DNA from: Candidatus Uhrbacteria bacterium
Lineage (GTDB): Bacteria; Patescibacteriota; Patescibacteriia; UBA9934
DNA length: 64,000 bases
Direction of reading: 5' to 3'
Assembly: GCA_003453595.1 (NCBI GenBank)
Contig: DMOG01000026.1
Coordinates: 6,567 to 70,566, forward strand
Below are positions 1,767 to 50,018 of this stretch, one piece after another (position 1 is the first letter of the stretch; each line of letters opens with the position of its first letter). The notes under the pieces were generated by a model that was given only the letters and a program-made list of their open reading frames with translations, was not told the DNA's origin and did not search any database. A program made the position numbers and the translations under genes.

Positions 1767-2408
1767 CTACATTATATCTAATATCTTTGAGCCATAAATG
1801 TACTCAATGTTGGTTAATCCAAACTTCGTCACCAGCTGGCCCTCGATTGGGTAAGTATGGCCGTGGAAAAGATATTTTGGTGACTTTTTCTCCACATACT
1901 CACGCAAGCCAATCAATCCGGCGTGAGTTGGATCGTCAGGTTCGTCATTTACTCCATATGGCGGTGCATGGCAGAGCATAATGTCAACATATGGAAAATC
2001 CTTTAAAAGCTCTGACGCCTGTTCTTGTGTATACATCTTGGCTGATGATTCTTTATATTTAACCGATCCTTCAAACCCACCAAAAATAATGCCATTTATC
2101 TCTTTTGTAGCTAGATGCATATTTTCGATCCCCAACTCAGCCATATACATTCCGGAACAGTGATTGCCATATACTCCCAACTTCGGAATATCATTAATGT
2201 CCTCAAGTTCACGAATTTGATGCATTTCTAAATCACCTAAAGTCACAATAACATCAACCGATTGTTTTAATAAAATCTCCTTTATTGACTCAAACGAAGG
2301 CCGATCAGCAATAGCAAGTATTCGCATAGAACTTGATTTTATTTTAAAAACTCGAAGTAGTTGCCGGTCATTGATCGGGACAAGGACCTGGGCAAAATTA
2401 TTTTCCAT
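1767..2408 (-). CDS. Calcineurin-like metallophosphoesterase (YfcE/MJ0936-like)
   Basis: Shows the metallophosphoesterase motifs: GDLE...(D), GNHC, LCHAPPYG, and GHTY (the GH motif). Confidence 0.7.
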   Translation of the reverse strand: MENNFAQVLVPINDRQLLRVFKIKSSSMRILAIADRPSFESIKEILLKQSVDVIVTLGDLEMHQIRELEDINDIPKLGVYGNHCSGMYMAELGIENMHLATKEINGIIFGGFEGSVKYKESSAKMYTQEQASELLKDFPYVDIMLCHAPPYGVNDEPDDPTHAGLIGLREYVEKKSPKYLFHGHTYPIEGQLVTKFGLTNIEYIYGSKILDIM

Positions 2409-2670
2409 TATTGAGAAATTGTCTCCCGATAAGAAATTGCACTAAACCAATCATTGATAGAACAGCAAAAAGTAAAATAAAGAATATATAGTAGGTGCCA
2501 GTATACCAACAGATTAAGATAATAATCAGGTCTCCAATGCCACAAGCGAGGAATATCCCCAAGCCACTAATCCTAGCATATTTTTTATATTCATTTGGAA
2601 TAGATTTTCCCTGTGCCCGTAATTCTTTTTGCTTACGCGCCTCAATAATCACATTTTCTCGAAATGTCAT
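2398..2670 (-). CDS. Small membrane protein with two predicted TM helices, hypothetical
   Basis: Has hydrophobic stretches LGIFLACGIGDLIIILICWY and YIFFILLFAVLSMIGLVQFLIG, and overlaps the downstream phosphoesterase gene by 11 nt, suggesting an operon. Confidence 0.45.
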   Translation of the reverse strand: MTFRENVIIEARKQKELRAQGKSIPNEYKKYARISGLGIFLACGIGDLIIILICWYTGTYYIFFILLFAVLSMIGLVQFLIGRQFLNNGK

Positions 2671-2744
2671 ATATTAGTTTTATCTGTAAATTTTAGCACG
2701 AATTAAAGATAAAAGCACAGACCACTCTTATTCGTCCAATCAAA

Positions 2745-2775
2745 AACCCCACCGATTCTGCACGGTGGGGTTTAA
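2745..2775. terminator. Bidirectional intrinsic-terminator-like hairpin AAAAACCCCACCG-attctgca-CGGTGGGGTTT
   Basis: An 8-bp GC-rich stem is flanked by an A-run and a T-run. Confidence 0.5.
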
Positions 2776-2795
2776 ATTTATATGATGAATGTGAG

Positions 2796-2841
2796 AAATC
2801 GCGTCACATTAGTGACGATCGTCACTAATGTGACGCGATTT
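2796..2841. promoter_or_regulatory. 46-bp perfect palindrome AAATCGCGTCACATTAGTGAC-GATC-GTCACTAATGTGACGCGATTT (candidate operator or long hairpin)
   Basis: Read directly from sequence: the arms are perfectly complementary around a central GATC, with a nested sub-palindrome GTCACATTAGTGAC. Confidence 0.7.
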
Positions 2842-2957
2842 AATTTTGTTTAAGTTGATAAACATGGATAGTTATTAGTACGCAAACGAAATACCGCCCA
2901 CTAAATCGAAGACAACGGGGCGGTCTTCGACGGGGCGGCTAGTTTTTTAGACGGATG

Positions 2958-3188
2958 TTAGCTTCCGTCTCTGATGGTGTAAGTGTAGGAGATGCTTCCC
3001 ACCGTCACTACATATTCATCCATCATCCCACCAAACATGACTGACCCGTCATCGGTGAGAAGTGGCATGTTCATGCCTTGAAATTGGTTTATTGTCCTAC
3101 CATTCTTGCGCCAGGTTAACGAGATCGGTGCTTCCACAGCCGACTCCTGACCTAGACCATTGATATATTTTGACAGCACCATTGGCAT
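2958..3188 (-). CDS. Hypothetical small protein (76 aa); weak call
   Basis: An open frame only, with no recognisable motif and no clear RBS. Confidence 0.25.
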   Translation of the reverse strand: MPMVLSKYINGLGQESAVEAPISLTWRKNGRTINQFQGMNMPLLTDDGSVMFGGMMDEYVVTVGSISYTYTIRDGS

Positions 3189-3260
3189 TTATTTATATAT
3201 TTATAGGAAATTATTGCAAATATAAGGAATTTATAGTATTATTTGCCTGCACAAAAAAAT

Positions 3261-3334
3261 AGGGGTGTAGTGAAATGGTATCACGAAGGTCTCCAAAACC
3301 TTTATTCTGGGTTCGAGCCCCAGCGCCCCTGCCA
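3261..3334 (+). tRNA. tRNA-Trp (anticodon CCA), CCA encoded, followed by a perfect palindromic hairpin CCACGTCGTTCGCGAACGACGTGG (3332-3355)
   Basis: Reads AGGGGTG-TA-GTGA-AATGGTA-TCAC-G-AAGGT-CTCCAAA-ACCTT-TATT-CTGGG-TTCGAGC-CCCAG-CGCCCCT-G-CCA. The acceptor stem has one G-U pair and the anticodon loop gives CCA. Confidence 0.85.
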
Positions 3335-3477
3335 CGTCGTTCGCGAACGACGTGGCCTGCCACTCAGATTTTATGCGGGCATTTAGTCTGCAGTTGAGAA
3401 TAGTGTAGGTCACGGTTCGTAACAATGTGATAGCAAAAGAGCGCCGAAAGGTGTTCTTTTGCTATAATGGAATTATT

Positions 3478-3738
3478 ATGTGGTATTTCTATATCCTACA
3501 AAGTCAGAAGGATTTAAATTATTTCTACAAAGGATCTACCGGCGATTTGCGAGCAAGATTCACACAACACAATGATGGCGAAGTTGAATCCACGAAACCG
3601 AGATGTCCTTGGCGGCTGGTTTACTATGAAGCTTATATCTCAGAAAAATCTGCAAGGTTGCGAGAAAAATCTGTAAAACAAAGTGGGTCAATCTCAATTC
3701 CGTTATTGAAGAGAGTAAAAGAAAGTTTGAATAATTAG
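3478..3738 (+). CDS. GIY-YIG nuclease superfamily protein (UPF0213/YhbQ-like); the ORF extends upstream to 3427
   Basis: Has 'YFYILQS...YKGSTGDLRARFTQHNDG...RPWRLVYYEAY...REK', which matches the GIY-YIG motifs (GIY...YIG, R, H-N, E). Confidence 0.75.
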   Translation: MWYFYILQSQKDLNYFYKGSTGDLRARFTQHNDGEVESTKPRCPWRLVYYEAYISEKSARLREKSVKQSGSISIPLLKRVKESLNN

Positions 3739-4312: not shown

Positions 4313-4906
4313 CTATCGGATCATGGCGTGGTTGTTCCAGAACTCCACCGAGGCGAGGTAGGCCTCGCGGTTGAGGGCGACGCCGCTGCCGCCCTCCTCC
4401 TTACCCAGTGCGTTGCGCATCATGGTGATGGGGGGCATGGGGTCCTCGGCGGGGTTGAGGCCGGCGTTGATGGAGACGATGCCCCACTCGGCGTCGGGTA
4501 CATCGCGCTCCATGTTCGGCGTCTGGTCGGCTTCCTCCTCCAGTGCCTCGCGGTTGTAGAGGATGATGTCGAGCCACTCCGCCTGCGGCGCCTTCAACCC
4601 CTCGAACCAGCGGGTCAGCACCGGCAGCTCACCCTCGCGCCGCGCCTCGTAGCCGGAGCGCAGCAGGTGTGCGTTGTCGGGGGTGATGGCCGCGATGGGG
4701 GCCGTGGTGGTTGTGGTGTTGCGGACGAAGAGGTGCTTGCAAAACGGCGCGTAGCCGTCCACCAGCATCTCGCCCGCCTCGAGCGCCGCATTGGCGATCT
4801 CGACGAGCTCCTCGGCGGTCATCCCAACGATGCGGGTGCCAGCGAAGTTCTTGTTGGCAAAGTGGCGGCCGAGGGCGAACTTGGTCATTCCGATGGTGTT
4901 GCGCAT
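4313..4906 (-). CDS. Hypothetical protein encoded in a high-GC island (about 62% GC); start assigned at MRNTIG with a GGAGG RBS
   Basis: A long ORF in a high-GC segment. A GGAGGCACC sequence sits directly upstream of ATG 4904-4906 on the minus strand. The overlapping plus-strand ORF 4154-4969 is judged a GC-induced shadow ORF. Confidence 0.55.
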   Translation of the reverse strand: MRNTIGMTKFALGRHFANKNFAGTRIVGMTAEELVEIANAALEAGEMLVDGYAPFCKHLFVRNTTTTTAPIAAITPDNAHLLRSGYEARREGELPVLTRWFEGLKAPQAEWLDIILYNREALEEEADQTPNMERDVPDAEWGIVSINAGLNPAEDPMPPITMMRNALGKEEGGSGVALNREAYLASVEFWNNHAMIR

Positions 4907-5180
4907 GGTGCCTCCATGAAGTTGGCCCGGATGCCTCCGGACGTGTCGACTTCGACACGATTCGGTTAGACGTTTGATACAATCTCGCGTCGCCTGCTTT
5001 ATAGGTTGGCACCTACAAATCAGGAAAAACGAGAAAAGCCAGTAACTGGATTCGTTCAAATAAAGAGAATAAGCGCAAATACCGGCGTTCTGTGGTTACC
5101 GTTACCCTTTGTGTGCTTGGATACCATAAATCTCAAGCATTAGGACAGCCCTGCTTGCAGGGTGTTTTTTTAATTATTTT

Positions 5181-6335
5181 TTACCATCGACCAGGACCGT
5201 TTGGATCATAGCCGTAGGCAACTTCTAACCCGTCGTTGTATCCGTCGTTGTCAGAGTCAGTGTCGAAACGATTTGTCCAGTGAATAGTCATCTCATTGTA
5301 ATCACTTAGACCATCACCATCAGAATCAAGTTTACCTTTTCCGTTTGGATTGTAACCATTAATCACTTCTGTTCCATCTTTATAACCATCGCCGTCAGTG
5401 TCAGCACTGAAGATATCAGTCTTCCAAATATTTGTCTCATCTTGGTTTGTTAAACCATCGCCGTCAGTGTCTAGGCTTGACTCAATACTATCAATACTAG
5501 ACATAACAAAATCTTCTGTCTGACGACTATCATAATTTTCAAATGACAATGCACTTTCTGGTACACGAATATTTGTTACTTTGTTAATACTATTTAACAA
5601 AACTGAGAAGCCGAACTTTGTATAAGCCACGCCCACAGGGTCACTGACAACATCCAAAGTAAACATTACTGGCATCATCTCCACTGTATCAATCCAGAAG
5701 TTACCACTAATCTTTAAGTTTTGCTCCTGCAGTGATTTCAGCTTAATAGCGTCGGTGTTAGAAATCTGTCTTTGCTCAATCAGATAATCGGCCAGCTTTT
5801 CACAATTGATTTCGTAATAATAACGAACAGCAAGTTTACCGCTAATATAATCAACTGTTTCCGCATGATATTCAATCACCCCATTTTTTAGCATTTCAGT
5901 AATTAATGTTTTTATTTGGTCCAAATCATTTTCTTCGTTTTCTGAAAATAATGAGATCTGGCCATCATTCATTTTAATAAAAAACCAATCATCTCCTGCT
6001 TGTGAGAAATATATTTTGTCGTGAGTTACAATCATTGATCCGTAAAAATCTTTGAATTGACTATCATAATCAGTCACTTGAAGGGCAAAATCAAAGGAAC
6101 CGTTTCCTTGTTCATCAATCACACCATCAAAGTCAGTATGGAGACTAAATGGATTATCCATTTTCTCGCTGTTTGTCTCAAAGTAAAAATCAGTATTAAA
6201 ATCTACTGACTTAATTTCAGATATATTATCAACTACCTCAGATGTAGGATCAGCTAGGAGCGTTGAGGCAAGCACTGAATTAAAAGGCATAATAATCAGC
6301 GCTATTAATGGCAAAATGAGTATTTTTCTAATCAT
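5181..6335 (-). CDS. Secreted protein with C-terminal thrombospondin type-3-like calcium-binding repeats
   Basis: Has a signal peptide MIRKILILPLIALIIMPFNSVLAS and repeated DTDGDGxxDxxE / DSDGDG / DTDSDNDG motifs. Confidence 0.6.
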   Translation of the reverse strand: MIRKILILPLIALIIMPFNSVLASTLLADPTSEVVDNISEIKSVDFNTDFYFETNSEKMDNPFSLHTDFDGVIDEQGNGSFDFALQVTDYDSQFKDFYGSMIVTHDKIYFSQAGDDWFFIKMNDGQISLFSENEENDLDQIKTLITEMLKNGVIEYHAETVDYISGKLAVRYYYEINCEKLADYLIEQRQISNTDAIKLKSLQEQNLKISGNFWIDTVEMMPVMFTLDVVSDPVGVAYTKFGFSVLLNSINKVTNIRVPESALSFENYDSRQTEDFVMSSIDSIESSLDTDGDGLTNQDETNIWKTDIFSADTDGDGYKDGTEVINGYNPNGKGKLDSDGDGLSDYNEMTIHWTNRFDTDSDNDGYNDGLEVAYGYDPNGPGRW

Positions 6336-11405: not shown

Positions 11406-11423
11406 GATCTTGAAAAGAATGTG

Positions 11424-11475
11424 CGGTCAGGCCTTTACCCGTTACTTTTTAACGGATAAAGGCCTGACCGCATTG
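11424..11475. terminator. Long hairpin (stem about 22 bp) GCGGTCAGGCCTTTACCCGTTA / TAACGGATAAAGGCCTGACCGC between two minus-strand genes
   Basis: An inverted repeat with one mismatch, seen in the sequence. Confidence 0.5.
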
Positions 11476-19365: not shown

Positions 19366-19729
19366 CCCAACCTACTCCCCCAAAATTCCCCATTATTCGC
19401 CCAATTTTGTCGCTTTACACTTGACAAAATCGCTTTTTTATGTTATATTTCTCCGTTCGCATAAAGGCAGAAAGAGCCTAAAATGCGAGTTCTTTTCCAC
19501 TTTGTCATCCCCTGGCTTGACCCTCCTATGCCTGCAAGGCTACGGAAGGGCTAGCCAGAGGATCCACCGACAGAAAATTTGCTGGATTCCTGCTTTCGCA
19601 GGAATGACAAAAAAATCTAGTTCTACAAAGCCCCGCCGGGCGAGGTCAAGTTCGACCTTGTCTGGCATCTGTTCGAAAACACCGGCCCAAAAGGCCACCA
19701 ACGCCCTCAAAAAGGGCAAGGAGGCCGAA

Positions 19730-20452
19730 ATGGCCGAAGAGAAGAAAAACGGGAAGCGTCAGGGCCCAGCCCTGTTCCTCTATCGCGGTCGAAAGGAGTG
19801 CGAAGAGCACCCCCTGACCGCGGACGAGCAGACCCTGGCCGACGCCCTGCGCGCCATGGCCACCATGGCCAACCAGGATCCGGCCGTCATGGCCAAGGTC
19901 CTGGAGATCGCCAAGGCCGCCCGTGCCCAGACCGAGCAGGCCCAGCTCAGCTGGTTGCTCGAGAACAAGCCGGACCAACTGGTCTACAAGGCCAAGTACG
20001 ATGTCCGACGCTTCCTCCAGCCCACGGACATGGCCTGCCAGGCCGTACTCGAGGCGGCGGGCAAGTCCGGGATATACCGCAAGTGGCGCGAAGGCGACAC
20101 CTGGAAGGACTCCGGGACCTTCCCCTACCGGTACGAGCTGGACAAAAAGACTGGCATGATCCGGCTCTCGTCCAACCTCGTCGCGGCAGCCCGCGTGATG
20201 TACTTCATCGCGGGTAGTCAGAAGAAGGGCGTCCGCATGTCCTTCGCCGAGACCGGTGACCGGCTGGTCGCTCTGGGTGCCCTGACCCAGAAGCAGCTGG
20301 CGGACATCCGCAAGCAAGCCGGTCCGCTGGCCGTCAAGGCCGGTGGCTCGGAGCAGGAACTCGAATTCCGACCGACAGCCGGGCGCCAGTTGGCGCAGGC
20401 CAAGGGAGGTGGCCTCACCGCCACCATGGCCGAGATGGCCGGCAAGGGCTAG
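19730..20452 (+). CDS. Ala-rich hypothetical protein in high-GC island B (about 63% GC); start assigned at MAEEKK with an AAGGAGG RBS
   Basis: A strong SD lies 6 nt upstream of ATG 19730. The opposite-strand ORFs here are GC shadows. Confidence 0.55.
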   Translation: MAEEKKNGKRQGPALFLYRGRKECEEHPLTADEQTLADALRAMATMANQDPAVMAKVLEIAKAARAQTEQAQLSWLLENKPDQLVYKAKYDVRRFLQPTDMACQAVLEAAGKSGIYRKWREGDTWKDSGTFPYRYELDKKTGMIRLSSNLVAAARVMYFIAGSQKKGVRMSFAETGDRLVALGALTQKQLADIRKQAGPLAVKAGGSEQELEFRPTAGRQLAQAKGGGLTATMAEMAGKG

Positions 20453-20594
20453 ACCACTTCCCGCGTGCAGGACACAATCGTTGAGACCAACTACCCCAGA
20501 GTCTCCGATTGCCTGTACGCGGGTCACGCAGAGTTTATGATGCGAATCATCATAAGTTCTGAGTGACCTGAAAATTTGAGAGAGATTATTAAAA

Positions 20595-20635: not shown

Positions 20636-20883
20636 CACAGCAACCTGGAGGTTGATGGATTTCTTCTGACAATCATTTAATGTTATCAGGAGGATTTGGA
20701 ACCTCAAGTTCTAGGACCTGGCCTTGGCTAGCTCCCAGTACACACCCGAGGTTCCTCGGGGCATATTTCTTCGGAAGTCACTGCCCCACATGTTCCTAGC
20801 TAGTCTAGGAGCTCTACATCACCTCCAGATTGCTGTGCCTAAAAAACACGCATTCCAAAAACCCGCACACCCAGGAGAGAAGA

Positions 20884-21467
20884 TGACGCAGTTTGTATCC
20901 GACCGGAACGGTCGCGTCGTGGTCGGGGCCTCCTGCCCCGACATCGGCGAGCTCGGCCTGGCCAACCTGTACGACGACGGAGACGAGGTTGCCCAGTCGT
21001 ACGACCCCCTGCGGCGGTGCAAGCCGCTCGTCGACGAAGTCGATGAGGACTGCCTCGCGCTCGAAGAGATCAACCTCGACGAGGCGCAAGCCCCGTGGTG
21101 GTATGACTTCTGCGATGAGCGCGAGGCGATCGAGCCCGACGAAGACGATGCCCCGACCGAGGCCACCCTGCCGGCCGACGCGGACAACGACGACGACCTC
21201 GACGAGCTCGACGCCATGGCCGAGCATGTCGCCAAGGGTTTCGACATGGAGATCCTGGAGGAACGCGCGTTGCGTGCCCACCTCCAGGACAGAGATCCCG
21301 GCCGCCAGCCGGCCAACAAGGGGGGGAGCTGGATCCATCGGCGCCCCCGGCAGTGGGTCGTGGCTCGTGGCCACGACTCCATCCTGCAGGCCACGCCCCG
21401 TCGGACGCCCAAGGCGTTCTGCGAGGCCGAGCGGCTCGCCGACATCCTCGCCGAGGCCACGGCCTAG
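20884..21467 (+). CDS. Acidic (Asp/Glu-rich) hypothetical protein in high-GC island B; start assigned at MTQFVS with an AGGAGAGAAG RBS
   Basis: The ORF has an SD and is followed by a 24-bp perfect palindrome CCCCCGACACAGCTGTGTCGGGGG at 21490-21513. Confidence 0.5.
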
Positions 21468-21529
21468 TCGCGGACTCGACCTACTATGCCCCCGACACAG
21501 CTGTGTCGGGGGCGTTGCGCGTTCTAAAT

Positions 21530-21594
21530 GGGGTCAGGTCTTTACTCGGAACACCTCATATCGATTTGGGTGTTCCGAGTAAAGACCTGACCCC
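21530..21594. repeat. Long-stem hairpin element, copy 1 (26-bp arms GGGGTCAGGTCTTTACTCGGAACACC / GGTGTTCCGAGTAAAGACCTGACCCC around a 13-nt loop)
   Basis: A perfect inverted repeat. The same arms recur at 49939-50003 with a different loop. Confidence 0.8.
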
Positions 21595-21598
21595 ATCT

Positions 21599-26507: not shown

Positions 26508-26592
26508 TTCGCGAAACTAAGTCAGTTAGACTTAGACACAGAGACTTAGACATTTTGTCTAAGTCTCGAAGCACTTTAGCTTGATTTTATTG
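26508..26592. repeat. Left flanking repeat of the IS200-like element (two hairpins: CTAAGTC-agtta-GACTTAG and GACTTAGACA-ttt-TGTCTAAGTC, plus CGAAGCACTTTAGCTTGATTTTATTG)
   Basis: A near-identical copy lies at 27370-27449 in direct orientation. Confidence 0.75.
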
Positions 26593-26638
26593 ATTTTTTT
26601 TTATTTTGTATAATCCTTTTCAGCTATATTTCAATAGA

Positions 26639-27250
26639 CTAGATCTTCAATCCAAAATCAATATTCATAGGACAACCATATTTTATCCAATCGATTAAAA
26701 ACTTGTCATACTCTTCACTACAGTCAAATTCATCATAGATTGATTGGCTATTACAGACATTATTACATTTACTAAATAATCTTGGATAACTAGACCATTG
26801 ATAATTCTGTAAATATTTAATGGCTTCTTGCACATTATCGACACCCTTCACCTTCCAATCTGGAAATAAGTATTTTAATGGATTCAAATGGATATATCGT
26901 GATATATGCAATAAATATCCATCATTATCAATTTCCTTAACCTTATAAGGTCCTTCGAATATACACCCAGTTCTTCGACTTATATCGTTATATCTGACAG
27001 TCGAGCTTATCCCAATTTTTTGCATAAACTTAGATATTCCTCCGTCAATTTTCTGCCTTAATAACAAATGAAAATGGTTATCCATCAAACAATAACAAAC
27101 AATATCGACTAATTGTTTACTTTTATTAAACCTCTTAAGGTTATACAAGAAAAATTTTCGATCATAATCACTTTTAAACAGTGGCTGCTTATCAACGCTT
27201 CTATTATATATATGGTAAAAACCATCATTAACTAAATTTTCGCGACGCAT
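26639..27250 (-). CDS. IS200/IS605-family or REP-associated tyrosine (Y1 HUH) transposase-like protein
   Basis: Has 'HIYNRSV...CYCLMDNHFHLLL', which is the HUH motif (HFHLL), a downstream catalytic Tyr region, and a size typical of about 200 aa. Confidence 0.7.
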   Translation of the reverse strand: MRRENLVNDGFYHIYNRSVDKQPLFKSDYDRKFFLYNLKRFNKSKQLVDIVCYCLMDNHFHLLLRQKIDGGISKFMQKIGISSTVRYNDISRRTGCIFEGPYKVKEIDNDGYLLHISRYIHLNPLKYLFPDWKVKGVDNVQEAIKYLQNYQWSSYPRLFSKCNNVCNSQSIYDEFDCSEEYDKFLIDWIKYGCPMNIDFGLKI

Positions 27251-27369
27251 AATTAATTTGTTAAGAATAAAATAACCCCAGCTGTTTTATCAGCTTGGGA
27301 GTGTGTTTGCTTATCTATTGCACCAAAAATACATTCTAAAGTCAATATAAGTTGTGCATATCCAATCAA

Positions 27370-27449
27370 GTGTCTTAGTCAATTTGACTTAGACATAGAG
27401 ACTTAGACAAAATGTCTAAGTCTCGAAGCACTTTAGCTTGATTTTATTG
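27370..27449. repeat. Right flanking repeat of the IS200-like element (GACTTAGACA-aaa-TGTCTAAGTC hairpin; the loop is inverted relative to the left copy)
   Basis: A direct sequence match to 26508-26592. Confidence 0.75.
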
Positions 27450-29700: not shown

Positions 29701-29802
29701 TGACGGCATATGGAATACAAATATATAAAAAGCCGTCAAAAGCGAACACCCCCATGACCGAAGTCTTGGGGGTGACGGAAGGGGGTTGAGAGAGGCCGCC
29801 GT

Positions 29803-30504
29803 CTACATGAAGTAGTACCAGGCGTCGCAGCCCTCCTCGGGGGTGGTGGCGGAGGTGCCGGTGCTCCAGCCGAGCGACTGGACGCCGGACAGGCCGTCGG
29901 TGGTGGTGTCGATGGTCTCGTCCGAGAAGTAGAACTGACCGGCCAGCCCGCAACTGGTCCCGTCCAGGTTCGACGAGGCGTACGAGTACGCACCGTCGTC
30001 CACCCGCTCGACGTTGAGCTTCAGCGAGTAGAACTCGCTGTCGCAGTCGAACTCGCCCTCGACCCACGCCGCGTTGGTCGCGGTGCCGACGGCGTTGCCG
30101 TTGCCCCAGGAGGAGCAGACAGCGTTGTCACCGGCGTCGTAGGCGATGACCCAGAGGGACATCGCGTCATGCGACTGGACACCCCAGTACCCGAGGTACC
30201 AAGTGTCGGCGTCGGCATCGGCGTCGGCATCGGCGTCGGCATCGGCGTCGGCATCGGCGTCCGCGTCCGCATCCGCATCGGCGTCGGCGTCCGCGTCCGC
30301 ATCGGCGTCCGCGTCGGCATCCGCGTCGGTGTCGCTGTCGGCATCGGCGTCGGTGTCCGCGTCCTCTTCCCCGTCGCCGGGGTTGAGGTCACGATCGCCG
30401 TCGTCGGCGACGTAGCCGGTGTCGACGTCGTCGCGGTCGCGGGGCTGGGACAGGTCGGTGCAGCCGACGAGGGCTGCGATCATGGTGATCAGGAAATACC
30501 GCAT
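29803..30504 (-). CDS. Lipoprotein with a (Asp-Ala)n low-complexity repeat, in high-GC island C
   Basis: Has a lipobox ALVGC-TDLS, a long DADADA... run encoded by the GCATCGGCGTCG hexamer microsatellite (about 30200-30345), and a Trp/Gly-rich C-terminal domain. GC is about 65%. Confidence 0.6.
   Translation of the reverse strand: MRYFLITMIAALVGCTDLSQPRDRDDVDTGYVADDGDRDLNPGDGEEDADTDADADSDTDADADADADADADADADADADADADADADADADADADADADTWYLGYWGVQSHDAMSLWVIAYDAGDNAVCSSWGNGNAVGTATNAAWVEGEFDCDSEFYSLKLNVERVDDGAYSYASSNLDGTSCGLAGQFYFSDETIDTTTDGLSGVQSLGWSTGTSATTPEEGCDAWYYFM
30200..30345. repeat. Hexanucleotide microsatellite (GCGTCGGCATCG)n inside the lipoprotein gene, encoding (DA)n
   Basis: Read directly. 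The shadow ORFs on the plus strand (SASASA..., GIGVGIGV...) are artefacts of this repeat. Confidence 0.8.
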
Positions 30505-30925: not shown

Positions 30926-31092
30926 GCCAAAAAGGAAAAAACTCGGCTTTTACAATATCTGCACAAAATCGTGAAGATATTATACAAGCCGAGTTCCGAT
31001 TCCCGAAACCGGCCCGTGCCCGTCCCTCAATCCCCTTTGCGGGGCGGAGCGGGCATCACCCCCAAAGGCGGAGACCCCGCCAAGGAGGCGCC

Positions 31093-31620
31093 ATGCGCAA
31101 CCTGATGTGTCTGATCACCATCCTGCTGGCCTCGGCCTGCACGGATCTGTCCGGAAACCAGAACGGCGAGGAGACCTACGTCCCGTCCATGTCGTCCGAC
31201 GACATGGACAGCGATGGCCTGGTCGACGGCTACGACTCCGACGAGATCGTCGGCCCCATCGCCAGCTACCCGACGGAGCTCTGGGTGAACGCTGGCGCCC
31301 TGTCCTTCCCCTGGATGGGTGAGGAGATGTCCTTCCAGTGCCGCGACCACAACGGCCGGGTGCTGGACTTCGCCTGGCAGTACTGGTACAACGGCGAGGC
31401 CACCCCCGCCAACACCTGGTTCGTCGCCTACATCGACGACCGGGCCGGCGAAGGAGACTGGCTCTGCGCCTTCACCCGCAACGACCGGTCGGTGCTCGAC
31501 ATCACCGTGTCCAACGACCCCCTGGTCTGGACGCACGGCGGCGTCTGCATCTACCAGGCCAACAACGGCGTCTACCAGGCGCCGGGCAACAACTCCTGCG
31601 ACGACATCCGAGGCCTCTAG
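31093..31620 (+). CDS. Lipoprotein, hypothetical, in high-GC island C; start assigned at MRNLMC with a CAAGGAGG RBS
   Basis: Has a lipobox LLASAC-TDLS, which is the same C-TDLS start as the divergent (DA)n lipoprotein. It contains Trp and Cys pairs, and GC is about 64%. Confidence 0.6.
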   Translation: MRNLMCLITILLASACTDLSGNQNGEETYVPSMSSDDMDSDGLVDGYDSDEIVGPIASYPTELWVNAGALSFPWMGEEMSFQCRDHNGRVLDFAWQYWYNGEATPANTWFVAYIDDRAGEGDWLCAFTRNDRSVLDITVSNDPLVWTHGGVCIYQANNGVYQAPGNNSCDDIRGL

Positions 31621-31699
31621 CCTCGACCGTCGCCCAATCCTTGAACCCCCGACAGCTCAGCTGAGTATCGGGGGTTCTGTGCGTTTAGGTTATAGAACT

Positions 31700-31812
31700 T
31701 GATAGGCAACCACCCCCCCCACCCCTCCTTGGGAAGGAGGGGAGACCGAGGTGCGGGGATCGCGTGATAGGCAACCACCCCTAACCCCTCCTTGGGAAGG
31801 AGGGGTGGTTAG
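31700..31812. repeat. Two tandem copies of GATAGGCAACCACCCC-N-CCCCTCCTTGGGAAGGAGGGG; the second copy overlaps and encodes the last about 10 codons of rfbD
   Basis: Sequence identity to the family was seen. The reverse complement of the repeat translates to ...NHPSFPRRG*, matching the rfbD ORF C-terminus. Confidence 0.75.
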
Positions 31813-40013: not shown

Positions 40014-42071
40014 ATGACACCAATACGACCAACCATGCTAGGAATGACTTTTCTTATCCTTGCCTGGGCTAACTTAATTGCAACATCAAATCCGGTATTG
40101 GGAATAATTTGTGGAATTGGATTTCTCTGGGCAATTTCTCGACTTTTCGGATCAAGATTTTTTCCAACTGGTGACTCTGCGCAACAGCTAATAATTGGTT
40201 TATTAACCAGCTCGGCAATCCTGATGCTTGGCGGCAGTGCAATTTATTATTTTGGATCAGTAACCCAGTTAAACTTGGGTATATTACTTGTTATTATTTT
40301 GGCAATCGCTACCTTGGTCGCACGAAAACCAAGTTCGAAGTCTAAAGAATCTATCACAAAGTACGCAGTTATATTAATAGCTACTGTTCTTATTTGTTTG
40401 TTTGCTTGGTGGTCAACACTTTGGCCAATTGAAATTACTCAATCAATTCGCTCACCATGGCTGGTGGTTGACCCAAAAATCCTTCTACCTTTATTAATTG
40501 CAATTATTTCTGCAATTACACTGATTACAAAAACTGTTTCAAAAATCTCAACTTTTCTTCTGGTTTTAATTTTTGCCAGCTCTTTGACAATGGCTGTGAC
40601 CATTTATTCACTTGGATATGGATTTGATCCATTTATCCATCGAGCAACTGTTGAACACATTACCCAATTTGGGACAATCACACCAAAGCCGTTCTATTAC
40701 ATTGGACAATATGCTCTAGAACTAATTGGCATGCTAATTTTTGCACTACCACTAAAGCTCATGGATAGTTTGCTTGTTCCGATTGGGGCAGCCTTACTAA
40801 TTCCTTGGAGCGCCTATACCAGCATCAAAATACTAGGACAAAACTGGCGTCTACTACTTGTTTCATTACTATTGCTTCCCTTGGGGATTTTTATTAGCAC
40901 CACGCCCCAATCTATTGCTTATATTCTAGCCACTTGCTTAGTAATATTATCAATACCATTATTACTTAATAAAATAGAAGACAAAATTTATCTTGGATTC
41001 TTGGGTCTGCTAACCCTAGCAATTCTTATCACCCATCCTTTAGCAGGCATTCCATCTGGATTCTTTTTTGTACTTGTCTTTATTAGTCAAATAAGTATTA
41101 GTAAAACCACGGAAATAATTCTTTTATTAATCGCTTCAATTCTAGCTACTGTTTCCTTGCCAATAATTTTTGTTTGGCAATCACTTGGATCAAACTTAAA
41201 TATTGAATTCTCACTAACAAATCTTGCCTGGAACCAACTCCAACTTACCGGCTTCTTTAGCAATCAATACAATTCTTGGCTCGATGGCTTATATTTAGTA
41301 ATTGATAATTATCTTTGGATAATCATCGCACTTTCGATTGTTGGTATCATCTTTGCTGTAAAAGAAAAGCTACCGCGTGGAGTCTATGTTGGACTTTATG
41401 CTGCCATAGCATCGCTTATCAGCTATTTAATTTTGACTCTGACTTTGCAATTTGAATTTCTTATTGAATACGAACGAACAAACTATGCTGACCGATTGCT
41501 AACAATGGCTGTAATCTTTTTAATCCCTTATGTTGGCATTGCCCTTTGTGAGCTTTGGGCGCGACTGACAACAAAACCGCAAGCACTGCAATTAAGTTTT
41601 ATCTTGCTACTTTCTTTAATGGCCACTGCCCTGGTCTATGGAGCATATCCTAGACATGACAATTATGCTCGCTCCGCTGGATTTAATGTCAGTCAAGCTG
41701 ATGTTGACGCAATCTATGCAATTGAAAATTACGCTAAAGATACGCCTTACATCGTGCTTGCCAATCAAGCAACATCATCAGCTGCATTGGAGGCATTTGG
41801 TTTTGCTCATTACTATCATGATGATATTTTCTATTATCCAATCCCAACCGGTGGCGAACTATATAATCTATATCTGGAAATGACGGACAACGAACCAACA
41901 GCCGAAGTTATGAATGAAGCCATGGACTTAGCCGGAGTAAAACTTGGATTTTTTGCAATCAATAATTATTGGTGGGACTCAGAGCGAATTATCGAACACG
42001 CAAAAAACCAATCTATAGATTGGTTTGCGCTAGGAGATGGGGCTGTGACAGTGTTTGTTTTTGAAAGATAG
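40014..42071 (+). CDS. Large polytopic membrane protein (more than 15 TM helices), possibly a glycan polymerase or GT-C-like; hypothetical
   Basis: The assignment rests on hydrophobicity pattern and context only. Confidence 0.4.
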   Translation: MTPIRPTMLGMTFLILAWANLIATSNPVLGIICGIGFLWAISRLFGSRFFPTGDSAQQLIIGLLTSSAILMLGGSAIYYFGSVTQLNLGILLVIILAIATLVARKPSSKSKESITKYAVILIATVLICLFAWWSTLWPIEITQSIRSPWLVVDPKILLPLLIAIISAITLITKTVSKISTFLLVLIFASSLTMAVTIYSLGYGFDPFIHRATVEHITQFGTITPKPFYYIGQYALELIGMLIFALPLKLMDSLLVPIGAALLIPWSAYTSIKILGQNWRLLLVSLLLLPLGIFISTTPQSIAYILATCLVILSIPLLLNKIEDKIYLGFLGLLTLAILITHPLAGIPSGFFFVLVFISQISISKTTEIILLLIASILATVSLPIIFVWQSLGSNLNIEFSLTNLAWNQLQLTGFFSNQYNSWLDGLYLVIDNYLWIIIALSIVGIIFAVKEKLPRGVYVGLYAAIASLISYLILTLTLQFEFLIEYERTNYADRLLTMAVIFLIPYVGIALCELWARLTTKPQALQLSFILLLSLMATALVYGAYPRHDNYARSAGFNVSQADVDAIYAIENYAKDTPYIVLANQATSSAALEAFGFAHYYHDDIFYYPIPTGGELYNLYLEMTDNEPTAEVMNEAMDLAGVKLGFFAINNYWWDSERIIEHAKNQSIDWFALGDGAVTVFVFER

Positions 42072-49877: not shown

Positions 49878-49938
49878 AAGTAGATATGTGATTTATGCCT
49901 ATATTTTATCGGATTATAGAAGATATGGCAACCAAGTT

Positions 49939-50003
49939 GGGGTCAGGTCTTTACTCGGAACACCCAAATTGATAAAAGGTGTTCCGAGTAAAGACCTGAC
50001 CCC
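49939..50003. repeat. Long-stem hairpin element, copy 2 (same 26-bp arms as 21530-21594, loop CAAATTGATAAAA)
   Basis: The arms are identical to copy 1. Confidence 0.8.
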
Positions 50004-50018
50004 ATTTGCGCAAAACCA

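Follow-up and report, generated by a model that had tools for sequence, protein, structure and literature searches.

Repetitive extragenic palindromic (REP) sequences, REPINs and REP-associated tyrosine transposases (RAYTs), for the definitions of which we follow Bertels and Rainey (2011; PMC3116915), constitute the described systems closest to the element reported here. This element is a perfect 46-bp palindrome in a stretch of 64,000 nucleotides (64 kb; hereafter the window) of DNA from a Candidatus Uhrbacteria bacterium, and coordinates given without a contig name are positions within this window. As in the REP/REPIN and RAYT systems, the element is extragenic, and two short palindromic units in inverted arrangement fold together into a long hairpin. 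Families of such repeats are here likewise specific to a clade or species, several of them occupy the same intergenic regions, and their stems carry compensated changes; furthermore, the genome contains a single-copy RAYT-type Y1 transposase with flanking hairpin repeats. Unlike REPINs, the units are joined without a spacer and in perfect symmetry, one or two exact cores are found per genome instead of tens to hundreds, the RAYT-like gene is flanked by repeats of another sequence family, which are direct instead of inverted, and the host is a bacterium of the Candidate Phyla Radiation (CPR). We consider the chances to be about even that the palindrome is a copy of a short dispersed intergenic REP/REPIN-like palindromic repeat.

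Elements of the IS200/IS605 group carry a Y1 TnpA and subterminal hairpins, and the Y1_Tnp gene of the window is, as in IS200, bracketed by directly repeated, hairpin-containing ends. In contrast to these elements, the gene was found in one genomic context only in the 24 contigs read, its best named match is RAYT and not IS200 TnpA, and the 46-bp palindrome itself carries no gene. The matS/MatP site has the sequence GTGAC-RNY-GTCAC. Together with SlmA-binding sites and parS, it resembles the palindrome as a short perfect palindrome present in few copies per genome and conserved across species, and the central GTGAC...GTCAC is like that of matS. The differences are a spacer of 4 nt and not 3, a far greater element length (32-52 bp), the mirrored variation of the non-conserved positions and the non-orthologous locations. 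Protelomerase targets such as telRL of N15 are perfect palindromes of ~40-56 bp with a CG-rich conserved centre and conserved outer boxes, the symmetry of which is mechanistically generated. The palindrome is similar to them in length, CG-rich centre and conserved outer boxes; it differs in that contigs from several assemblies cross it and in that the sister genome has several copies.

Three inverted repeats in a gene-free spacer

The palindrome is located in a spacer of 287 bp (2671-2957), in which the following structures were detected by reading of the sequence and by a repeat finder.

2744-2773, both strands: T2, hairpin like a bidirectional intrinsic terminator, 11-bp GC-rich stem and 8-nt loop (also flagged by terminator scan)
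2796-2841, no strand: perfect palindrome of 46 bp without spacer
2894-2948, both strands: T1, nested GC hairpin with a run of six T (also supported by folding)

The preliminary description of this DNA had placed the same three structures at coordinates that differ by only 1-2 nt, and had taken the segment to be without a protein gene. Both points hold; no open reading frame (ORF) above 25 aa is present in the spacer. A 23-aa ORF at 2782-2853 spans the palindrome and was rejected as a short peptide gene, because its flanks are not conserved in the other copies of the palindrome.

Two arms of 23 nt each (2796-2818 and 2819-2841), 100% complementary and with 0 nt between them, constitute the palindrome. 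Its centre is CGATCG, and each arm contains a nested mini-hairpin, GTCAC-ATTA-GTGAC. The core of 32 bp at 2803-2834 (GTCACATTAGTGACGATCGTCACTAATGTGAC) represents this mini-hairpin as an inverted doublet centred on CGATCG. As a single strand, the whole palindrome was calculated to form a hairpin of -34.2 kcal/mol as RNA and -23.9 kcal/mol as DNA, and the full hairpin (-34.2 kcal/mol) is favoured over two separate mini-hairpins (-13.2 kcal/mol). The arms of T2 are AAACCCCACCG (2744-2754) and CGGTGGGGTTT (2763-2773), preceded by an A-run and followed by a T-run; on the minus strand the hairpin is followed by TTTTTGATT. T1 consists of an outer stem, CCGCCC (2894-2899) with GGGCGG (2933-2938), and an inner stem, TCGAAGAC (2906-2913) with GTCTTCGA (2923-2930). 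A direct repeat, ACGGGGCGG, lies within it at 2915-2923 and 2930-2938, and its tail is the T-run at 2943-2948 when read on the plus strand, and TATTTCGTTT when read on the minus strand.

Chance does not account for the palindrome: by our own arithmetic, 64,000 x 4^-23 = ~1e-9 palindromes with 23-nt arms are expected in the window. Two occurrences of the half-site were counted in the window, against none in 100 shuffled sequences, and both spacer strands fold ~9-10 standard deviations better than shuffled sequences. Assembly artefact, which the preliminary description had kept as a possible objection, was rejected since the palindrome is identical in the NCBI metagenome-assembled genome (MAG), the ENA assembly and the JGI metagenome contigs, one of which has a single-nucleotide polymorphism (SNP) elsewhere in the spacer. 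These observations altogether confirm that the three structures of the spacer are real.

Copies of the palindrome and a RAYT-like transposase

Genomes (one per species) were scanned with the pattern GTCAC-N4-GTGAC-N4-GTCAC-N4-GTGAC. Among the 52 loci obtained, 50 were coding tandem repeats; the remaining two carry the exact 32-bp core, including its 12 unconstrained positions, and both are in the Patescibacteria MAG KR13_N2.mb.36. This MAG and GCA_043817975.1 represent one species, as judged from a DUF362 protein 99% identical and an identical intergenic region, and the species is a congener (hereafter the sister species) of the organism of the window. The two copies are as follows.

P1a, sister species, between ABC-transporter and DUF362 genes (contig L071, centre 3863): exact copy of the core
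P1b, sister species, 56 nt upstream of tRNA-Arg (contig L054): exact copy of the core

A scan of JGI metagenomes added only the window locus itself, in three samples, and one contig of 55% GC (L069), whose palindrome differs by a single mirrored change, ATTA/TAAT to AATA/TATT. The L069 palindrome (within 2713-2947 of that contig) is located 10 nt upstream of the start of a 277-aa ORF, and two further direct half-sites (GTCACAATAG / GTCACAATAGAAG) stand ~170-220 bp away from it; the ORFs of L069 gave no Pfam, PHROG or NCBIfam match. Copies of the half-site outside this locus, for which the preliminary description had proposed to look, are thus present in the sister species and in L069. Two more perfect palindromes without spacer, ACCTGCACAAGTGATACGATCGTATCACTTGTGCAGGT and GCCACATAGTGTTCGATCGAACACTATGTGGC, were found in loci of the sister species. 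After gapless alignment on the dyad, the six members share the consensus CACA-N7-CGATCG-N7-TGTG, in which CACA and CGATCG are invariant and at fixed spacing in all six. As far as sampled, the family is confined to a genus-level Candidatus Uhrbacteria clade.

Similarity between the copies stops at the edges of the palindrome; the flanks have nothing in common, and the neighbouring terminators are outside the repeated unit. All other copies are, like that in the ORF-free spacer of the window, intergenic. Their positions are non-orthologous between the sister species: the sister species has no palindrome at its tRNA-Trp/metallophosphoesterase locus, and no gene or protein is common to the four palindrome neighbourhoods. 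In the orthologous region between the ABC-transporter and DUF362 genes, other Uhrbacteria carry different, species-specific palindromic repeats, and a third species (contig L136) has yet another.

Variation among the copies is mirrored. The outer arms vary even within one genome, and complementarity is kept: AAATCGC/GCGATTT, AATCGT/ACGATT and TCCAAAACGA/TCGTTTTGGA. Over the inner 16 pairs of the six members, 96 of 96 cells are Watson-Crick pairs; nine pairs are changed on both sides, none on one side only, and no G-U pair is present. The unbiased evidence for symmetry is provided by the loop change of L069 and the outer arms of P1a and P1b.

The window also encodes a candidate enzyme for such repeats.

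26520-26592, plus strand: left copy of a 73-bp direct repeat, hairpin GAGACTTAGACA-TTT-TGTCTAAGTCTC
26639-27250, minus strand: gene for a RAYT-like Y1 (HUH) transposase of 203 aa (Pfam, NCBIfam)
27377-27449, plus strand: right copy of the 73-bp direct repeat, 92% identical, loop flipped to AAA

The 203-aa protein carries the HUH motif HFHLLL and the tyrosine motif YIHLNP, and matches Pfam PF01797 (Y1_Tnp) with 39.6 bits against a cut-off of 23. Since PF01797 is passed and the RAYT family of NCBIfam stays below its cut-off (see below), the ORF is regarded as a Y1 transposase resembling RAYT and not as a certified member. The gene is single-copy, and its context was the same in all 24 contigs read; such a single fixed context indicates a behaviour like that of RAYT, unlike that of multicopy IS200 elements. 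The gene with its flanking repeats (26520-27449) lies in a stretch of 30% GC.

An identical 27-mer and several further copies of the motif of this flanking repeat fill the ABC-to-DUF362 intergenic region of contigs L074 and L075, where the sister species has P1a. The doublet in L074, GAGACTTAGTCTC-TA-GAGACTAAGTCTC, is 28 bp long, without spacer and of the same architecture as the core of the palindrome; by side-by-side reading, its mini-hairpin differs from GTCAC-ATTA-GTGAC in two compensated stem pairs and one loop base. These contigs appear to belong to the species of the window or a very close relative, because of the identical 27-mer, a shared depletion of ACGT and their origin in the same sample series.

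The support for the REP/REPIN reading is thus the recurrence at several loci, the similarity confined to the palindrome, the mirrored changes, the non-orthologous positions, and the RAYT-like gene with flanking hairpins of the same architecture. The most economical reading supposes a system of REP/REPIN-type hairpin repeats and a RAYT-like enzyme that is maintained in the clade, with the palindrome as one of its low-copy members or relatives; the palindrome is probably linked to a hairpin-binding transposase. Under this reading, the unit would be the 14-nt mini-hairpin GTCAC-ATTA-GTGAC, arranged as an inverted doublet without spacer. Exposed on single-stranded DNA during replication, the element would fold into the 23-bp hairpin, and a hairpin-specific Y1 HUH transposase of RAYT type would recognise the conserved core and copy the element into new intergenic sites. 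We infer that a RAYT may mobilise the palindrome. The two arms might then correct each other and keep the dyad symmetry, either by template switching of the quasi-palindrome (PMC7202029) or through a hairpin intermediate; from hairpin-templated correction, perfect symmetry, mirrored substitutions and flipped loops are expected, and template switching is a process by which the symmetry may be maintained. At most, the local effect of the element would be that of an extra bidirectional hairpin barrier or insulator between two terminators and between transcription units.

Several observations weigh against this reading. The copy number is low, with one copy in 64 kb, and three JGI metagenomes containing this species give only this locus; in the sister MAG, two exact cores were found, along with two relatives within ~29 kb of its sequence. 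The only NCBIfam match of the transposase, NF047646 (REP-associated tyrosine transposase), reaches 44.4 bits, below the equivalog cut-off of 80. The repeats flanking its gene are of a different sequence family, so that no transposase is tied to the palindrome, and the assignment of L074 and L075 to the species rests on indirect evidence. Neither a target-site duplication nor a clean empty site was found among the copies. Two of the six members were found by the criterion of perfect palindromy itself, which inflates the statistics of symmetry. Finally, the species do not differ at the 12 pattern-free positions of the core, and CACA and CGATCG do not vary among the members, which also fits a symmetric DNA-binding protein. 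Confidence stays at an even level because of the low copy number, the lack of a tied transposase, the lack of an empty site and the strictly conserved core, and for these same four reasons a symmetric protein that binds or processes the DNA stays a serious rival.

Competing explanations

The genes and signals on both sides of the spacer, against which the alternatives have to be judged, are as follows.

2398-2670, minus strand: gene for a 90-aa protein with two transmembrane segments, downstream of the spacer (conserved homologues)
2690-2698, minus strand: extended -10 promoter-like element TGCTAAAAT for the 90-aa gene (promoter reading)
2958-3188, minus strand: orphan ORF of 76 aa, upstream of the spacer, coding status uncertain (homologue search, AF2)
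3261-3334, plus strand: tRNA-Trp, at the edge of the lineage-specific segment 2671-3260 (tRNA and Rfam scans)

The palindrome could be the binding or processing site of a symmetric, dimeric or tetrameric, DNA-binding protein, that is, a chromosome-organising or regulatory site, or a recombinase or nuclease site at the CGATCG dyad. We regard this as doubtful, even though it is the strongest of the alternatives. Dyad symmetry is perfect with the centre included, the CACA and CGATCG boxes keep their spacing in six members, the pattern-free core positions do not vary across species, and the central GTGAC-GATC-GTCAC resembles known protein-binding palindromes. In L069, moreover, the palindrome is close to an ORF start and accompanied by two extra half-sites. 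A site for a regulator is, however, difficult to reconcile with the location of the copies, as all three CPR copies are 70-137 nt away from the nearest promoter-like element, with hairpins between in two of the three, and the positions are non-orthologous between the sister species. Copies of the same genome differ in their outer arms and yet remain mirrored, which is not predicted by a model of protein contacts. No regulator gene is common to the neighbourhoods, and searches of annotated plasmids, phages and papers gave nothing comparable.

The more specific proposal of an operator, made in the preliminary description, is not favoured. The only promoter-like element found for the 90-aa gene is TGCTAAAAT, and the centre of the palindrome is ~135 nt upstream of the transcription start inferred from it (2818 versus 2683), with T2 separating the palindrome from this promoter. 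Likewise, the centre of P1a is ~137 nt upstream of the inferred start of DUF362 transcription (3863 versus 4001 in L071), and the same element, TGCTAAACT, is found directly before the DUF362 gene in relatives. The palindrome overlaps no promoter, is absent from the corresponding locus of the sister species, and has neither an adjacent regulator gene nor a gene common to its neighbourhoods; no DNA-binding domain was found in the flanking ORFs. The similar spacing of ~135 and ~137 nt, in front of two genes both with TGCTAAA(A/C)T extended -10 elements, may be coincidence.

The copy in L054 is near a pair of Gp49/HigB-like toxin and HTH_3 antitoxin genes. A toxin-antitoxin operator was rejected, as the palindromes are more than 80 bp from the TATAAT of the operon, with another hairpin between. 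Within 1021-1871 of this contig, the interval between the toxin-antitoxin pair and tRNA-Arg contains two distinct perfect palindromes, of 38 and 52 bp, separated by 25 bp, and at ~1706-1745 a terminator-like hairpin on the plus strand has no plus-strand gene upstream.

That the palindrome is a strong bidirectional intrinsic terminator, or an RNA-stabilising hairpin, insulating the tRNA-Trp/76-aa region from the operon of the 90-aa and metallophosphoesterase genes, appears improbable. The terminator scan does flag its plus strand, with the tail TAATTTTGTT; a TTTTT stretch follows P1a when it is read in the direction of the ABC-transporter gene behind which it lies in the sister species, the relative P2 has a run of six T on one strand, and one outer arm is rich in A and the other in T, a feature of bidirectional terminators. 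Canonical terminators are, however, present on both sides at 22 and 53 nt, which makes the palindrome redundant in this function, and no plus-strand gene is located upstream. The relative P3 is without a T-run on either strand, and T-runs are inconsistent among the members. Furthermore, a terminator needs neither a 32-bp core conserved at unrelated loci nor a self-complementary loop, and no G-U pairs were seen. Of the two neighbouring hairpins, T1 is probably the terminator of the transcript of the 76-aa ORF on the minus strand. The SNP at 2911 in contig L004 converts a G-C pair of T1 to G-U in minus-strand RNA and to an A-C mismatch on the plus strand; this one SNP, by keeping the pairing only on the minus strand, gives a slight indication that T1 serves minus-strand transcripts.

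A stand-alone small RNA of the minus strand, in which the 23-bp hairpin would be followed by the terminator at 2773-2744, is very improbable. The fold is indeed very stable, and sub-threshold Rfam matches were obtained on the minus strand at 2735-2844 (rnk_leader, 34.3 bits; ncr1175, 32.5 bits). These have the generic shape of a hairpin plus terminator, and all are below the gathering scores, the best being 34.3 bits against a cut-off of 50; in the Rfam scan of the window, tRNAs alone passed. No promoter-like site was found in 2842-2894 on the minus strand, between the two terminators. The adjacent terminator is outside the repeated unit and not conserved with the palindrome in other copies, and perfect symmetry at the DNA level with a palindromic loop is unexpected under selection on RNA. 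The plus-strand T-run of T1, which had been taken as a hint of a small non-coding RNA, is part of a bidirectional hairpin, which on the minus strand terminates the 76-aa ORF as well, and the small RNA proposed on this ground is not favoured.

Origin from a phage or plasmid was rejected: phage and plasmid collections gave no match to queries of 58 bp and 590 bp, megablast of the whole window matched only tRNAs, and viral sequences scanned for the core or the consensus yielded chance matches only, plus one unrelated phage palindrome (CACACTCCCTCCGATCGGAGGGAGTGTG). No paper containing the core sequence was found in the literature. A protelomerase tel site was rejected because independent assemblies read through the palindrome into unique flanks, and no protelomerase gene was found among the ~50 window ORFs scanned with Pfam (of 98 ORFs of at least 90 aa). 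A link with PvuI-type restriction fails since the count of CGATCG (9, with 8.4 expected) shows neither depletion nor enrichment. A TIGR-Tas stem array, in which repeat/spacer units are arrayed in tandem beside a Tas gene with a Nop domain (PMC12045711), was rejected for lack of a tandem array and of a Nop-domain match in the neighbouring ORFs. Integron attC, dif and CIRCE gave no match when the sequence was read by eye against their consensus sequences.

The surrounding DNA and the meaning of the repeat

The window was assigned to contig DNJE01000013.1 of the Candidatus Uhrbacteria MAG GCA_003489995.1, and its gene content is that of bacterial housekeeping. The 90-aa protein is conserved, with 26 representative homologues, and its ORF is followed by a metallophosphoesterase gene, the true start of which is near 2327 as judged from homologues. 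For the 76-aa ORF, the homologue search found only itself, with none outside its own species, and its AF2 model (pLDDT 59) is too poor to use; since it is an orphan, the truly gene-free stretch may extend as far as tRNA-Trp at 3261. No viral relatives of either protein were found. In GCA_043817975.1 (locus L003), the nearest of the other species sampled, identity is 82% for the metallophosphoesterase and 86% for the 90-aa protein; there, tRNA-Trp directly adjoins the metallophosphoesterase gene, and the 90-aa gene is located downstream of the latter. Because tRNA-Trp abuts the metallophosphoesterase gene in this arrangement, the segment 2671-3260 of the window (~590 bp), with the orphan ORF and the three hairpins, is considered to be lineage-specific, rearranged DNA next to a tRNA gene.

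Comparison of 1767-3738 of the window with 5200-6850 of L003 showed tRNA-Trp to be inverted relative to the metallophosphoesterase gene, with the 90-aa gene on the other side of the latter. A GIY-YIG ORF is present at 3427-3738 of the window, a place taken in the sister species by NYN-domain and 55-aa ORFs. Other perfect palindromes without spacer, of 22-26 bp, are located at 3331-3356, 21488-21513 and 42005-42026; the first of these (GCCACGTCGTTCGCGAACGACGTGGC) starts inside the 3' end of tRNA-Trp. The JGI contig L067 lacks 48 bp (~3316-3363), losing the 3' half of the tRNA and the GCCACGTCGTTCGCGAACGACGTGGC palindrome, which represents either a deletion variant or an assembly error.

A second family of hairpin repeats, with GGTCAGGYCTTTAC in the arms, was found at 11422-11472, 21528-21596 and 49938-50004, all intergenic. 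Two of its copies have identical arms of 27-28 nt and 13-nt loops, each nearly the reverse complement of the other, and the third copy shows compensated changes; the GGTCAGGYCTTTAC pattern gave 6 arm matches in the window against 0.47 expected.

The tetranucleotide ACGT is strongly depleted in the window (12 observed, ~91 expected), in L074 (0 against 13) and in L136 (3 against 12). No such depletion is seen in L003, L071 and L054 of the sister species, which suggests an ACGT-specific restriction-modification system in some lineages. The contig L136, from a related Uhrbacteria MAG, carries at 4412-6303 a pair of C5 DNA methylase and NgoFVII-like restriction endonuclease genes, downstream of the mraZ-rsmH-divIC cluster. 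Four GC islands of ~0.75-0.9 kb, at ~19600-20500, 20750-21500, 29750-30500 and 31000-31750, have 64-71% GC against ~40% for the genome. Their ORFs, on both strands, show no Pfam or Rfam match and no mutual similarity; at least one of them, at 19421-20452, reads as a real protein of foreign composition.

A further suggestion, which we put forward as speculative and rather unlikely, is that with the CACA-N7-CGATCG-N7-TGTG palindromes the CPR has a novel type of element or site that symmetrises itself. They might be REPINs without spacer, copied by a divergent RAYT via a hairpin intermediate that mirrors every mutation, or targets of a dimeric DNA-processing enzyme that acts at the CGATCG dyad. 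In either case, and to our knowledge, the CPR would thereby gain its first described system of REP/RAYT type or with symmetric sites; no paper describing REP/RAYT systems in these bacteria was found in our literature search.

The genomes of CPR bacteria (Patescibacteria) are small, streamlined and from uncultured organisms, and their non-coding DNA is almost unexplored. For their annotation, the present analysis serves as a warning that a long perfect palindrome in such a genome is more probably a dispersed repeat than an operator or a small RNA gene. The strictly mirrored variation could serve as a natural read-out of hairpin-templated mutation by template switching. If the REP/REPIN reading is true, persistent and vertically inherited mobile DNA of the REP/RAYT type extends to episymbiotic bacteria with genomes of ~1 Mb.

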